A DNA stretch of 64,000 nucleotides, from positions 40,858,001 to 40,922,000 of the forward strand of contig OZ336880.1 in the NCBI GenBank assembly GCA_965287045.1, written 5' to 3'. The translations under genes were made by a program, and so were the position numbers. A model generated the notes under the pieces. The model had not been told where the DNA came from, ran no database searches, and was given only the letters and a program-made list of their open reading frames with translations. Each line of letters starts with the position of its first letter. The stretch's first letter is position 1. Shown piece by piece: positions 5,101 through 14,100 of this stretch. The stretch is from Carcharhinus amblyrhynchos. Its lineage: Eukaryota.

Positions 5101-8100
5101 TATATGAGTCACATCTTTGAGTATCATTTTAATATTTACTCTTAACTTGTTTTTTTAATGGTAGAATTAAGCTTTTCTATTGTAATCAATGTTTAATATT
5201 TGTGCAAAACATGTAAATTGTTTAGTAGTGAAGGAGGAGCTTTGGTGGTTTGATTTGTACAAACGTCAAAATAAAAAAAATTGTACCTTTCACAACATAA
5301 ACATTAATCAACATTTTAGTCAACATATTTATCAGTTATGTTCTTGCAATGCAACAGTCTAATTGTGAAAGCATGTGTTGTTTACTATCATTTATCTGCC
5401 CCATTTACATGATTTATGATGTGATGAATGAAAAAAGTTAATCTTCCATCTTGGTGAGAAGTTCTTTAATACAGACATCATTCATTCCTTGTACAGGTTT
5501 CTGTTGCTGTATATCATAATTGTTTCACGTGCTCTATGGGTGGTTAGTTGATGATAGTTTGGTTTTGGTATAGTAATAATATGATTGATATGTATGGCAT
5601 ATTTCCTTTCACTTAACCTGTCCTGTCCTGAGACAGCTGCTCATGCTATGATGCAGTTCCACAGGCCCCCTAGTACCTTGCCCATCTGAATGTTTAATGA
5701 TGACCTGTGAATTTTGGTAAATTATTTGAGCGTTGGCCAACTTGGCGAATGTTGTTCTGCACTTAACTGATGGCTACACACACATGGCTGAATACCTTGG
5801 TTCCTGGGTTTTGGTAACAGGAGCAGTGGTATAGCTGGTAAACTAGCAGAAGCAATGTTGAGATGCCTCCCCTTCACTGACCCATTGTGGGACAGGCTTT
5901 CCAATGGTGGGCTGCAAGACAGTTGGCAACCTGCTCCATGGAGGCCAGCAACTAAGTTCCATACACAGGGCTCAATTAAAGGCCATTTTACGGATCCATC
6001 ACCATTTACTAGTGGCAGGTGGGCCCCCATTGAATGGAGAGTCTGCCAATTTCCAGGAGCTGGCCCTTCAGCTTTGCCTGAAGGGGCCTTCAGAGCCAGA
6101 AGTACAAAAGGCAGCCCAAACACCCCTAACAATCCTCTGGAGTAATTTTGTTCTGTAATCGGTGTAGCCAATTGCTGTCATCCCTCCCAAAGTTTAATTT
6201 TACTTACCTCTCTGAGGCTCCTTCACTTTCAATCACCTCAACAGCTATGTCCTGCCTCAGCGGTGCTGTCCTCTCCTGGTGACAAGGCCTAAGTTTCAGA
6301 TCTGTTAGCCTTCTGATTGGGCCAGCAACATCAGGAGCCAGAGTCCATAATTGGATGGTGGGCTCTCAGGTGGCTAATTAGGACAAAAGATGTGCTGGTT
6401 AGGTGCATTGGTGTGCTAAATTCTCCCTCAGTGTATCCAAACAGGTGCAGATATGTGGCAACTAGGGGACTTCCGCAGTGAATTCATTGCAGTGTTAATG
6501 TAAGCCTACTTGTGACACTAATAAATAAACTTAAAGGAAATCAGCTGCAGTAAAATCATTGAGCCAGTCCCTCTGACAGCAAGTATGGGCTCAGGATCTG
6601 CCTTTCACCCTAAAAGCAGGACCCTGAAGCCCACAGTAAAAAATTGGCCCCACATTCAGTTTGGATTGCAGGATAATGATCAGGAAAATAAACATTTTTA
6701 GATTTTGTGTTGCCATAGCCTGGAGATGCTGAAGTCAATTTTAGCATTTCATTGCTCCCTAGTTAAGAGAGGTTCAGCATAAATCAGGTTTTGTGTAGCA
6801 CAGGGCTAGACAAATGTTACACTTGTCTCCTGAACCACTGGACCAGATCCTGGCTTAGTAAATTGTTATCACGTAAACCAATATGGGTTTGACAACATTG
6901 AGTTATCAGATGATTGGCAAGGTTTACACATGAAAACTATTATTTTTCATTCTGAAACTTGGCAGACTATGAAATTATCAAACAGATAGTGTTATTGTTA
7001 AGGTAAAAGTAGGAATGCATTTTTCTCTTAGTTTGCTTGTGGTATGACTTACTGCTCAAATGTGATTTATTTGATTGAAACATTTGTATTTCTGTGATGG
7101 AATAAAATTTATATTAGAAATTACTCAAGCCTTTAGAACATTTCTAGCATGCAAAATAATTTTGTATACTGATAATTAATACCAACATGACTACCTTGTA
7201 ATGGAATTTTGTGAAGTTCCCATGGCAAGATGGTTACTGAGCTAGTTTTTACTCATTTTGATTCAGAAATGGAGAATATTGATGTGACGTAAAATCATTT
7301 TTATCTGTAAATAGTTACTGTGGCTCTTCAGAAGATCTATATTTAATATCTACAAATCTCAAAAAATTTTAAGTTAAATGGTTTGATTTTGACTTGAGAA
7401 ATGAAGGCAAGTTTTTTTTATTTTGCTTGTAAGCTGTTCAAAATAGCTTGAGGCAAAATTTCTCTCCTGCTTTGGACTAATTCTATTCACAATTAATGGA
7501 TCCAATTGTATGTTTTAGTTAAAGATAAATCTTTGAGATGAACTATTACAGAATTTTATCCTTTTGAGGCAATTTGAGTTTAGCATGCTAAGTTATGTGA
7601 TTAATTTTTGTGATTATTTTCAGTTTCCAGTATTAAGAAACATCACTCACCATCAACACGCATTCTAAATTTAAGCATCTTATTTCTTATACAGAATTTT
7701 CTAGCTCTGTTACCGTTGCTGCTGAAGATAAGAGGGAAGATTTCTACAGTAGTGACCTCCATGTGTCAGATAAAACATTTGAACTCAAGCCTGAAACAGC
7801 ACCTCTTTCCAGCATTTCAGACATAGAAGCTAAGCCTTTGAAAGCAATACCAGCATTTGTTAAAAGCATTTCCAGTATAGAGGTAGTTGTGGAAGATGTA
7901 GCTAAATTCACTGTGACAATAACTGGATTCCCCAAACCCTCTATTCAGTGGTTTCATAATAATAAAAAAATCACTCCTTCATCAAATTGCAAATTTATTT
8001 ATGATAGGGATGAATATAGTCTAATTATACCTTATGCAAAATTTACAGATGAGGGAGAATATACTTGCTCAGCTGCCAATGTGCTTGGAACAACTTCATG

Positions 8101-11100
8101 TAGTGCATATCTGAAGATCAAACCAAAAGATGGTATGGGAGGGTTTAGGACATCAGCTTCAAAACCTCCAGTTGCAAAACCGACTGATAAAAAAATAAGC
8201 AAAGAGGCATTCTCAAAGGAAATTGTGTCAATGATTCCAACAGAAACCATACATACCCTTAGAGGTCAGCCACCACATTTTTTCAAAGAACTTAAATCTG
8301 TGCAGTGCCCAGAAGGTCTGCCTGCTAAATTTGACTATGTAGTGAAAGGTGAGCCAGTGCCAGAAGTGCTTTGGTATAAGGAGAACGATCAGATTCACCA
8401 GAGCGTGCAATGCAATCTTAGATCCAATCCTGACGGCTCTGGTTCATTAACTATCAATAATGCACAAAAAGAGGACAGTGGTTTATATTCCTGCAAAGCT
8501 TTTAACTCATTTGGTGAAACAACTTGCACTGCAGAGCTAATTGTATCCAGTGGCACTTCTGCTACTGTTGAACATAAGAAACAGGAAGTAGTTCAAAAGC
8601 ACCATACCAAGTCATACACAAAGACTGTTGGTGATCATGCCACAGAGTCACGTTTATTCATGGTAAAGTTACCTGGTGAGGCTCAGGCTGAATTACAAGA
8701 CAGAGATCAACTGGTGTACACAATAGCTTCTGAAGGTAAACATTCGGTTCACAGTGAGCAGACCGGCACATTGCATGATGTGACTGTTTCTGCTGCAGAA
8801 ACAGCAATTGCAGGAAAGAGACAGATAATAATGCATTCACAAACCACACAAGAAAGCCTGGGTTATATAGAGCAACATTATGAACCAATTAAAAGTCCAC
8901 CAATGTTTGAATTATCAAGCACTGAAGTACAATTAGATTCTACCCTTTGTTTGCCCACAATTGAGGAGAAAACTTTAATTCCAAAGGAAGGCAGTTTTAG
9001 TATCAGAGATTCATCTACTATAGATACTAAGACAAAGACAAAAGAAACAAGCATCTTGTCTGTGGAAAAGGATCTAATTCCCAGCTCCAGGACTGTTGTA
9101 GAGAAAGAAATATCAAAAACAGAGCCAGCATACTCTTTGCACAGCTACAAGGTTGAGGGAGATCAAGGACCACCCAAAGAGGCATTGTTTGGATTTGAAA
9201 TTCCTGCATTACAGAAATGTGAAATACAAAAAGAAAGAAAAATGGAGGTTCATACAGCTGTAGCAATGGAACAGAATAAAATAAAACATGAAATGGCAGA
9301 AGACATACAAATGTTAGATGAAGCAAGAGAAGCAAAACCGTTTAAAGAATTGCCGAAACCATTCTTGATGACTGTCACTGAAAGCCAGAAATCATTAGCG
9401 AAGGAATCTCTGTTCAAAGTACCTAAAGCTGACACACAACAAGCTTCAGTTATGAAAGATAAACTTGTGAAAACTGCTTTAACTGCAGAAGAAAAACAAC
9501 AGCTCACGAGTGAACACACCAAAGCAATATTTGGGTTAGACAGTGCAATCTCATTAACATCAAAAAAAGAAGAAAAGACACCTTTGCATTTACAGATTGT
9601 TAAGGGACAAGACACTCTGCCCAAAGAAACAACATTTACTTTTGAAGTACTGGCAGATGAGAAAGCTGACCTCAGAAGGAGCCCAATATTGCTGCATTCG
9701 TTACTATCAGAAGAACAGCATCTTTTACCTCACGAATACACTACTCCGTTATCTGATGTAAAAGATGCCGTCAGAACTAAACCTATGAAAGAGCGTATGC
9801 CTATTTTATCTCCTCATTATATGGAGACTACATGCATTTTTGATAAAGAAAGGATGCGACCTGATGAGAAACCAGCATCTCATGTTGCAGCACACAAACT
9901 TGAGAAAGCATACAGCTATTCTGCTGTTGTGGAAGAGAAAGCAGAATTGTTAGCTGAACAAACTAAAACACTTGAAAAGGAAGTTCCAAGTGTACAGGCT
10001 GAAGTTAAAAGTGAGCATTCAGCAGAAGAATACCTCCCAGCTGTAACTGTACCAATGCACCTATCAAAAGAGAAATGTTTTACTGTTGAAGAGAAAGAAC
10101 AACGTGCAGTAATAAAGAAGTTGGATGACACAGTTAAACAGTTCGGTACTATAACAGAGATTAAGATCGTGGAAGATGGTTCACTTGCCATTTCTGAAGC
10201 CGTAAGTGCAGCAACCTGTGAAGATAAATATGAATTAAAGCTCCCTTCAGTTTCTGTGCAGGTTAAAGATAAGGCAATGCCTATAGAAAGCATCAAGACT
10301 TTAGAGGCTGCAGAAGAGGACTTTGCAGCAAGAATCCAAGAGGGTCAGTCAGTAAGATTTCCATTGCTGCATGAAGAAAAACAGCTCATTGAAGAGGAAC
10401 ATTCTTCAGGAATCAAGAGATCAGAGCAAACAATTCTGAAGGTGGAGAAACAACCACATGAAACACAATTTGCTCAAGTAATACAAGAAAATAATGCATT
10501 CCATAAAGAAACAGCATTCAAGGCTGAAGTTCCTAAAGCAGTCACCTTAGATGTTAGTACACAGATTAAGAAAGCATTGCAGTCAGCTTTAGCAAGTGAA
10601 CATTGTGTCCTTTCTTCTATTTTACTAGGTAGCATAGAACCAGTGAAGATTAAGGAATTAAAAGTTCAAAAAGAACCTAAATATAATTTATACACATACC
10701 AGATTACTAATATCAATCCTCCCATAGACATAACTCTGTCATTTGAGGGAGAATACCCTCAGAAAGCTGACTTAAGAAAGGAATTAATAGCTGCCTTCCA
10801 TGCCATTACTCATGAACAACAGCAGGCTTTGCTAGCTGAGGAATTGAATATCATTCAGCTGCCAACTGATAGGTTAGAAAAATTGTGCATCAGCATAGCT
10901 CCTGCAAAAGAGATGATCTCACCTGAGGCTGTCAACATTGCTGAAAGCACCTCTGAAGTGGCTAGGTATGGAATGCATATGACTGAACAGAAAATGCAGA
11001 CAGCAGAGAAGACAGTTGTTCAAGAAATGATAGTAACCACTGAATCAGAGGATTTTATTCAGAAGTTTAAATCTGTAGAGACAATTAAAAAAGGGGCAGT

Positions 11101-14100
11101 CGTTAGTCACATAAGAGATGTTGGTGGTGCGATAATTACTAAAGATGCCCTTTCAGCACCTGTCCCAGTAGAGCAACCAACAGAAATTCTTAAAAAAGAG
11201 AAGAAAATTGAGGAGCTTATAGTTACTAGCATTTCTAAACCGAAAAAGCCAGGTGAAACACTAATAAAAATCACCAAAGACATTCCAGTAATTATTAAAG
11301 GGCTTACAGATATCATTGTAGATGAAGATAGTGACGTAAAATTAAGCACAGTCATTACAAAAGTTAACAAGGTAAATTGGTATATCAATGGGAAGAAAAT
11401 CATTTCAAAACATGAGTTCAAATGTTTACAAGAACTTGACACTTACTCACTTATAATCAACAATGTACAGAAAGCGGACCATCAAGGAGAATATGTCTGT
11501 GAGGCACTGAATGAAGCTGGAAAAGCAACTACTTCTGCAAAACTCACAGTTATTATAAGAGGTTGGATTATGGGGATAAAATCTTTGTTAATACGAACTT
11601 CAAAAGCTAATATATTGAACTAACTATGTAGTTAACTTTTGATATTAGTTTCTCAAAACTCAACTGAGTTTATGCCAATAAATTAACATGACTAAATATT
11701 TCCTTCCCTCCTTCCTTCCATTCCTGTCTTCCTTTTTTACCTTCCTTATTTTAAAAGTAAAAGCATTATCTAGTTATCAATCTCTATACCGTGCAGTCAA
11801 AGCCTGATCAGACCGCATCAGTTGATTTCACAGATATTTTGCATCAAAAATTTCAAAACTTAACATCATTAATTTAGCAAACCTAATCTGGTTTTGTATT
11901 AATTTAAATGAAAATTGCATTCTGGCTTGATGCAATCTTCAGATGCTTTCACTGTCGGTAATAAGTAACTTTTAAAGCTTTAAGTTATGTTAAAACTTTA
12001 CTGTGACTATATTATTATTTTTTGGTCTCTTATACTTTAACATTAACTTTTGATTAACATCAGCCATGGTGCTTTAAGTTTCTACTAACAGAATTAATAT
12101 TGCTTTCATCCCCATATCCATATTTGAGGAGTTGCTAGATTTTTTGTCATTATCATCACTTTGTCATAACGAAAAGACATTTCTTCCTAAAACTTAATAT
12201 CACCGTTTCTGTCATTTTTTTTTCTCTAGGAAAACATTTCATAGACGTACCAATTACTTGCATGTTTCTATGGACACCACACATGTCAATAAATGTTGAA
12301 TTTCATTCATTGAAGTCTTTCATTTGTTGAGCACAACCACTGGTCAGCTAACATTTTTAACAATCATTTCTTCTCCACAGTCACTCCTTGGATTGTTAGT
12401 TACTGTCACCCTCCCTCCTCCATCTATGAATTTCAGGGGGTCACATACGAAAAGAATTACAGTTAACTATTGCAGTATTTTCACATATTTTCCTTTAATT
12501 TAAATCATAGTGCCTCCGTCTTTCAAGAGGAAGATTGAACCACTGGAGGTGATAGTTGGACAAGCTTCTCAGTTTGAATGTGAAGTTGATCCTATTCCTG
12601 ATGTAAGGTTCCAGTGGTTTCGAGCAAGAGCTGAACTTCGCGATAGTGAGAAGTACAGGATTGTGAATGAGAAATACATCTCCGTCTTGAAACTTCTGAA
12701 GCCTCAGCTAATTGACTGTGGTGAATACACCTGCAGAGCATCCAACCAGTGTGGTAGTGTTAGCAGCACAGCCAAACTGATGGTGACTGGTAAGTCATCC
12801 ATGTTCAAATTGTCTTTCATTTTAACAATTTGTTTTCAATCAGACTGTCTTAAAAGATTTGGATGGTTTCATAGGTACCTTTACTTCACATATGTCTTAA
12901 TATCACTTTCAACAATAGCAATACATGTTTTGATATTTTTATATCATTTAATTATGAAAATAGTTACATTTTGAAAAGATATTTAAATAGTCAATGACTT
13001 TGCCTATCATCTGTTCATTCCTTTTATAAAATCACTATTGTGGCTTCTTTGTAATGATAAAGCTGTCTGTTTTGCTAATAGAGTGGGTTGAATTTTTCCA
13101 TTTGGATCATGAGTCCAACCCTGGCCCCAGAAGTGGCAGTGGTGGAGTGTTGCTTGTGATCTTCCCAGAGGCAACCAATTGGCCTCTGGAAGCGCTGTCC
13201 AATTAAAGACAGCAGGAGGACCAATGAAGTGAGGGCATGTAACAATGTCTGGCTCGCAGCCCACTAGAAGGGTGGACTGAGATGAGCATGATGTGGATGT
13301 GCCGGCGTTGGACTGGGGTAAACACAGTAAAAAGTCTAACAACACCAGGTTTTAGTCCAACCGATTTATTTGATAGTAAACGCACAAGCTTTCGAGGTTT
13401 CCCTCTTTGTCAGGTGAATGGAGAGTTCTGGCCTCAGACAGAGCATATAAAGCACAGACAGTTTAGAGATTACTGATTAGAATGCGAATCTTTACACCTA
13501 ACCTGCTGTTCAAGTCTTAAAGTGGCCGACAATGTGTGTGGAAGGAGCACTGATCACAGGTTAAAGAGATGTGTATTGTCTCCAGACAGCACAGTGAGTG
13601 AGGTTTTGCAAACCCAGGCAAGTCACGGGGGTTACAGATAGTGTGACATGAACCCACACTATCTGTAACCCCCGTGACTTGCCTGGGTTTGCAAAACCTC
13701 ACTCACTGTGCTGTCTGGAGACAATACACATCTCTTTAACCTGTGATCAGTGCTCCTTCCACTCACATTGTCGGCCACTTTAGGACTTGAACAGCAGGTT
13801 AGGTGTAAAGATTCGCATTCTAATCAGTAATCTCTAAACTGTCTGTGCTTTATATGCTCTGTCTGAGGCCAGAACTCTCCATTCACCTGACGAAGAGGGA
13901 AACCTCGAAAGCTTGTGCGTTTACTATCAAATAAATTGGTTGGACTAAAACCTGGTGTTGTCAGACTTTTTACTGAGATGAGCAGGCAGCCATCAGAGAT
14001 CTCCCTAAGATTGAGATGCTCTCCAGAGGATTTTGAAATGCTCAAAATCCCATTTGGTTGCACCTATCAAGCCATCAGTGTAAAGGATAAGCCCACAACA

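Follow-up and report, generated by a model that had tools for sequence, protein, structure and literature searches.

The shark titin N2B exon was identified within the window, the whole 64-kb stretch of Carcharhinus amblyrhynchos DNA that was analysed (64,000 nucleotides). Translation of the frame at nt 7637-11623 gives two Ig domains, followed by 910 aa without a Pfam family and by a third Ig domain. All of these are contained in one exon, as is the case for the titin N2B exon with its two Ig domains, its long unique sequence and its further Ig domain (Table 1). The product exhibits 94% identity to a titin-like protein of Mustelus asterias (P0004), 59% identity to skate titin and 55% identity to elephant shark titin. 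Based on these likenesses and the Ig layout, the exon is therefore assigned as the shark titin N2B exon, and naming of the region as the titin N2B unique sequence (N2Bus) in the initial annotation is borne out. The I24-I25-N2Bus3-I26 order described for titin agrees with the exon layout in the window (PMC8553726; this and the other papers given by PMC number are cited from extracts of their text). A contig from run X1, which we guess to be an RNA run, spans 7693-11559 and is spliced to 12509 over a GT..AG intron; run X2, of small share, reaches just parts of the exon and was not counted as evidence for it. Heart-specific inclusion of the N2B exon has been reported for the ventricle of the elephant shark (PMC12241362). 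P0004 and the X1 and X2 contigs carry about 15 extra residues in the tail at window position 11007, while the DNA run X3 is gapless as compared to the window.

Two further regions of the window can be described. Within 6500-7100, each of the three runs shows very high read depth at 6500-6536, and X1 has a separate minus-strand contig of 599 nt; this part of the intron is probably an interspersed repeat. Positions 3-2138 of the plus strand contain the 3' part of a Novex-3-like exon, which ends in a stop codon and resembles the bird protein P0003. This exon carries several degenerate aromatic-x-T-P-P motifs, which possibly constitute a cluster of proline-directed kinase sites, and the matching residues ~1270-1390 of P0003 form a young short tandem array.

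Table 1. Features of the titin N2B exon in the window; bits are those of the held-out profile against the shuffle maximum.
Feature	Position	Strand	Remarks
Titin N2B exon	7695..11561	+	3867 nt, AG/GT boundaries, multiple of 3, single open frame
Ig domain I24	7850..8119	+	Pfam I-set, ORF residues 72-161
Ig domain I25	8273..8545	+	Pfam Ig matches ORF residues 237-303; start from translation, approximate
N2B unique sequence (N2Bus3), 910 aa	8546..11275	+	Between flanking Ig domains; no Pfam family at E<=1
U1, 71 aa	8609..8821	+	14.0 bits vs 11.7
Degenerate stretch, 106 aa	8822..9139	+	Holds the 8984 anchor; placed by alignment; 13.7 bits vs 10.1
U3, 75 aa	9140..9364	+	29.1 bits vs 8.2
U4, 74 aa	9365..9586	+	43.0 bits vs 14.0
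U5, 74 aa	9587..9808	+	45.2 bits vs 13.4
U6, 74 aa	9809..10030	+	30.7 bits vs 10.4
U7, 72 aa	10031..10246	+	19.3 bits vs 10.6
U8, 74 aa	10247..10468	+	14.8 bits vs 10.6
U9, 73 aa	10469..10687	+	31.2 bits vs 15.3
U10, 76 aa	10688..10915	+	23.5 bits vs 9.7
Homologue of the N2B-us folded domain (human 354-468)	10532..10861	+	Most of U9 and most of U10; limits approximate
Non-repeat tail, 120 aa	10916..11275	+	No unit match
Ig domain I26	11276..11561	+	Pfam Ig matches ORF residues 1245-1311

The unique sequence carries a tandem array of units of about 74 aa, whose reality we regard as practically certain, and the entire array is located inside the one exon. The nine anchors from which such a period had been proposed are all in frame, with confirmed spacings of 64, 75, 74, 74, 74, 72, 74 and 73 aa. 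The L-x-K-E-x-x-F anchor indeed recurs, but not as strictly as described, with K-E present at seven of the nine anchors and the strict pattern at three. When the suggested autocorrelation was run over nt 8984-10850, a peak at lag 74 with z 6.4 was obtained, as compared to a top z of 5.3 at any lag of at least 10 among 2000 shuffles, and secondary lags are found at 148 (z 3.8), 110 (z 2.6) and 36-38 (z 2.3-2.6). The periodicity expected of a tandem repeat is hence observed above composition-matched shuffles. The lag-74 peak holds against shuffles that keep the local composition (z 6.3, 0/200), and at the DNA level a period of 222 nt is seen (z 5.4). A composition artefact is ruled out by the local shuffles and by six control titin stretches, none of which peaks at 74. 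Since the region at nt 8984-10850 had been chosen by eye, the test was repeated on complete unique sequences, delimited by the flanking Ig domains; for that of the window the peak is weaker, with z 3.9 at lag 74 and 3.7 at lag 75 (1/200 shuffles as high), and the score summed over lags 72-75 is not significant (922/2000 shuffles). Among the eight window units U3-U10, conserved residues are E14 (7/8), A27 (5/8), E44 (7/8), a hydrophobic residue at position 48 (8/8), E or D at position 51 (6/8) and E69 (6/8). No DNA tandem array was found for the window units, and no match to the unit outside the N2B exon was obtained in the six frames of the window (best 5 bits).

Assignment of the units is based on an iterated profile, which converges on 74 positions. 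With cut points taken from the all-unit profile, each position was scored by a profile made without it, and this held-out profile beats every shuffle at all ten window positions, showing recognition of the units by a profile derived from the other units only. In mammal-like sequences 10 of 15 units pass the same test, with eight of nine for U8-U10 and two of six for U4, U6 and U7. Limits of the array given in the initial annotation are correct as to the anchors, but U1 had been missed and the last unit extends to 10915, and what was taken as a 64-aa unit at 8984 is actually part of the degenerate 106-aa stretch. This stretch corresponds to a half unit plus U2 of bony fish (109 aa), where the full array comprises U1, a 35-aa half and U2-U10. 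Four of the seven bony fish sequences that were not used in training have unit-start spacings of 105, 74, 75, 74, 74, 74, 73, 74-75 and 73 aa, and the remaining three agree over most of the array. The ancestral array is one of ten units and a half. The non-repeat tail varies from 33 to 139 aa across 28 sequences.

The array is common to sharks, bony fish, frog and birds and, in an eroded form, to mammal-like sequences. These conclusions come from 28 orthologous regions, chosen as being close to complete in the relatives, fragments and P0004 not being included, with group labels of unlabelled proteins assigned by likeness to named reference proteins of Coregonus, Salmo, Champsocephalus, Scleropages, Leptodactylus, Nestor, Fulmarus and Castor. 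The top lag is 74 in 18 regions, 73 in three, 147 or 148 in three and 37 in three, amounting to 27 of the 28 regions, with lag 11 in the last one, and in 23 of the 28 the peak is matched by at most one of 200 shuffles. This was replicated with eight later matches, as all seven fish-length sequences have a top lag of 74 (z 5.2-8.9, 0/200), and a later bird sequence tops at lag 73 (2/200 shuffles). An open lag scan fails in two of the three mammal-like sequences (50 and 64 of 200 shuffles), and a pre-set test of lags 37 and 74 is passed by all three (0, 2 and 0 of 5000). No match to the unit was obtained outside N2B in six long titin records. No relatives beyond jawed vertebrates were recognised among 27 phmmer and 14 profile matches, most of them unnamed, in searches that are weak for repeats of 20% identity. 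The units may resemble repeats of invertebrate titins, to which a link would be conceivable. Among individual orthologues, the N2B exon product of Leptodactylus fuscus (P0021) lacks I25, the second of the N-terminal Ig domains, and retains just two. Upstream of the N2B array, residues 2051-2700 of the Coregonus titin P0062 exhibit a strong 87-aa periodicity (z 13.5), which likely reflects recently duplicated Ig domains.

Each unit of about 74 aa is composed of two halves of about 37 aa, as had been suspected: the profile shows a lag of 37 with z 5.8, the halves are aligned by hhalign with an E-value of 9.4e-6 and a probability of 83%, and cross-half identity is 11.7% as compared to 7.2% by chance. 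Further halving is not supported, as a quarter period of ~18.5 aa is not seen in the merged half profile (z 0.2-0.4 at lag 18); in raw sequences a weak z of 1.6 is found at this lag.

Concerning the history of the array, orthologous units are 34-53% identical and paralogous units 11-20%, with 7% expected by chance, as calculated from 216 of 235 units with fewer than 25 gaps. A tree was built from 80 units of 11 sequences, in which nine changes, the minimum, suffice for the ten positions, as compared to 57.8 after shuffling; it is based on 72 columns only, which group units by position without settling how the positions are related to one another. Since units group by position, the duplications are older than the split between cartilaginous and bony fish. 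The proposed origin by unit duplication is thereby upheld, together with the held-out paralogy at all ten positions. Recent or concerted duplication is ruled out by the tree, the identities and the absence of a DNA tandem array. All the large later changes seen are losses and occur from the N-terminal side. Bird-like arrays start inside U5, and mammal-like arrays retain U4 to U10 with a loss of half of U5, such that about six units are counted in birds and mammal-like sequences as compared to ten and a half in bony fish, with four or more units lost out of register. P0033 represents a mammal-like N2Bus of just 349 aa, lacking U5-U7 and retaining U8-U10. The eight anchored indels of at least 12 aa measure -92, -64, -27, -26, -21, -12, -41/-43 and -229 aa. 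With a tolerance of 4 aa, none of the eight equals a multiple of 74, and therefore the earlier claim that the length varies in 74-aa quanta fails; as multiples of 37 only one of the eight comes within 4 aa.

Spacing within the array can be measured from the anchors of U4 and U9, whose distance is 362-370 aa in all 23 non-mammal-like sequences having both anchors, as compared to 312 and 315 aa in two mammal-like sequences (25 sequences with both anchors in total). When the window is aligned with 15 distant relatives, the core is 29-38% identical and has 2-6 gaps in ~510 residues, and in the same pairs Ig domains have 0-1 gaps per 184 residues and the tail 1-8 per 70-116. Thus, the indel rate of the core is near that of the flanking Ig domains and well below that of the tail. 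A pure entropic spring would not be expected to keep register in this manner, and the locked spacing favours either putative periodic binding sites or a folded repeat.

The array is ancient and register-locked, and its last two units make up a folded domain that is already known. The human N2B-us of 572 aa holds a folded 115-aa domain (residues 354-468), which unfolds at a few pN, and no unfolding step is observed when this domain is removed (Sun 2024, PMC11530556). In that study the domain was treated as stand-alone, whereas here it maps to U9 (from about position 15-21) and U10, with which the family of ten units ends. Homology to the human domain (354-468) was established by alignment, in which U9 and U10 align without large gaps to mammal-like P0032 and P0033 and to Castor P0057, and by comparing the Table S2 construct of Sun 2024 by eye using the unit map of mammal-like P0032 and P0057. 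Position 33 is a large hydrophobic residue in 100% of U9 and U10 and in at most 26% of U1-U8, mean hydropathy is -0.28 and -0.22 in U9 and U10 as compared to -0.49 to -0.70 in U1-U8, and a helix-type hydrophobic pattern is present only in U9-U10. The human domain has three strands between two helical regions, with which U9-U10 of the window agree in hydrophobic pattern only. Homologous half positions within the folded domain are strand-like at one place and helix-like at another, and this mismatch would point to a derived fold in U9-U10. The array also offers an explanation for where this domain, found only recently, came from, namely two repeat units that would have been recruited.

Mammalian N2Bus3 (572 aa in human) is encoded by the same exon with the same I24-I25-unique-I26 layout, and has been described as unique and mostly disordered, whereas the shark counterpart has 910 aa, ten units and a clearer register (PMC11530556, PMC8553726). 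Shark U4-U10 can be aligned with their counterparts in mammal-like P0032 and in Castor P0057. No internal repeat of N2Bus is named in the extracts of PMC11530556 or PMC8553726, and repeats described in the extracts of the elephant shark titin paper are Ig super-repeats and Z-repeats (PMC12241362). No description of N2Bus repeats was found in the literature searched, which is mainly open access and includes extracts of PMC12198301, PMC8553726, PMC13031707, PMC7912658 and PMC11040099, with older work on titin motifs and the zebrafish I-band lying beyond that scope; the repeat array was apparently undescribed before. Using curated cut-offs, no Pfam family matches the N2B unique sequence in the window or in nine relatives, NCBIfam yields none, and PDB sequences give chance matches only (E of at least 0.077 and at least 0.88). 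Nebulin repeats are 35-aa units with a family motif, and their family is among those without a match in these ten sequences. Repeated motifs in non-Ig titin are exemplified by the PPAK repeats of PEVK. Our model for non-Ig titin motifs as ligand-docking units is provided by the Z-repeats, which are of 45 aa and bind alpha-actinin. Z-repeats are encoded by separate spliced exons, one for each unit (PMC12241362), in contrast to the 74-aa N2Bus units, which share a single exon and match no recognised family.

N2Bus is one of three cardiac titin springs and a hub for phosphorylation and FHL binding, and is modelled as a featureless chain. From the sequence comparisons we tentatively propose, at just short of an even chance, that the N2Bus array might instead be a series of evenly spaced, tension-exposed putative docking sites for the multi-LIM adaptors FHL1/FHL2. 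Many sites in human N2B-us bind FHL2, and force increases the binding, with AlphaFold2 predicting an antiparallel strand on each LIM domain (PMC11530556). Of the 24 predicted LIM sites, 14 are located in residues 79-308 and eight in the folded domain, such that this domain and the FHL2 pull-down segment 79-308 account for 22 (PMC11530556). On the 573-aa mammal-like P0032, residues 79-308 correspond to U4-U8 and 354-468 to U9-U10. The LIM-interaction domains of LDB1/ISL1 are low-identity linear motifs in extended chains, which bind tandem LIMs via two motifs of 8-10 residues and use ~30 residues per two LIMs (PMC5496915), and hence fit 37 aa per LIM pair and 74 aa per FHL. These domains are single copy with a variable spacer, and the comparison with N2Bus units concerns their form rather than a relationship in sequence.

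Under this docking proposal, a 37-aa motif would have doubled to 74 aa, and about ten copies of the 74-aa unit would have arisen within a single exon before the shark/bony fish split. U1-U8 would form a largely open chain of periodic strand-forming motifs, whose hydrophobic patches (around positions 2-5, 11-19, 37-42 and 48-56) may be offered to LIM domains, such that each half would take up about two LIMs and each unit one FHL with its 4.5 LIMs. U9-U10 would have been recruited into a folded force switch hiding the same sites, and birds and mammals would subsequently have lost N-terminal units out of register. Several points argue against the docking proposal. LIM-binding spacers are reported to be variable and plastic (PMC5496915), so LIM binding alone need not lock the spacing, and sites predicted by Sun 2024 have lengths of 3-5 aa and distances of 5-15 aa rather than 37 (PMC11530556). 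A sub-period of one motif per LIM within the 37-aa half is not seen, given the z of 0.2-0.4 near 18.5 aa, and the documented cases of FHL2 binding are mammalian, although erosion of the array is strongest in mammals, with deletions that are out of register.

Somewhat below an even chance, we place a reading of the 74-aa unit as a register-locked ruler module, being either one FHL footprint or a small force-sensitive fold in fish, in which the number of units would set the number of signalling adaptors or unfolding steps of a cardiac titin and the human fold would be the last two units locked shut as a force switch. If true, fish and sharks would have ten modules, and birds and mammals about six that are eroded.

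The main rival is a folded repeat in fish, according to which most shark and bony fish units fold, either as small alpha/beta domains in a chain or as a solenoid resembling the U9-U10 domain, with serial unfolding at low force, and mammals kept the last fold only. We consider this unlikely, though it deserves serious weight: the indel rate of the core is close to that of the Ig neighbours, hydrophobic residues at positions 11, 17-19, 27, 48 and 56 recur in all units (position 48 in 210/216), and U9-U10, whose human counterpart is folded (PMC11530556), are true family members by the held-out profile. However, U1-U8 are more polar and lack the helix-face residue 33, the would-be helix of U2 and U5 contains ~1.5 Pro, and the human region gives no unfolding step once the domain is removed (PMC11530556). 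Fish or shark units represent the cleanest material for structure work.

A lower probability, which makes it a poor candidate, is given to the repeats being a relic of spring lengthening, with N2Bus as an entropic spring with scattered sites and a functionless register. Paralogues that are just 11-20% identical, the out-of-register loss of at least four units in birds and mammal-like sequences and the viability of mice lacking the exon (PMC8553726) are consistent with such a relic, but sharks and bony fish share a fixed length unit by unit, in contrast to a fourfold variation of the tail within this exon, and selection on total contour length would allow compensating indels, which are rare. 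It is very improbable that the 37-aa half serves as an actin-filament ruler, as in nebulin repeats. As background, 37 residues of helix span ~5.5 nm, which equals one actin subunit, and nebulin repeats are comparable. This arithmetic of the period, the I-band location and the strict spacing speak for an actin ruler, but Pro is frequent at positions 12, 22, 70 and 73, a nebulin Pfam match is lacking, and N2Bus3 is reported to have no direct actin binding (Yamasaki 2001 as cited in the review PMC8553726). Tuning of spring length by gain or loss of whole 74-aa units is largely refuted and merits hardly any credence: the unit number does differ between bony fish and birds or mammal-like sequences, and the 41-43 aa deleted in common by mammal-like sequences come near to half a unit, but none of the eight large indels is within 4 aa of a multiple of 74, no young near-identical copies are seen and every change seen is a loss.

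The 37/74-aa register provides a coordinate system for the human region, which allows unit positions to be assigned to FHL2 sites, phosphosites and missense variants, and by which the place and number of bound FHL molecules can be addressed unit by unit. At window ~9674-9685 (U5, positions ~30-33), a motif of the basic-x-S-P type is kept in all nine non-mammal-like sequences of the alignment shown and is gone in all three mammal-like ones, along with the first half of U5; it is a candidate phosphosite, putative from its motif.
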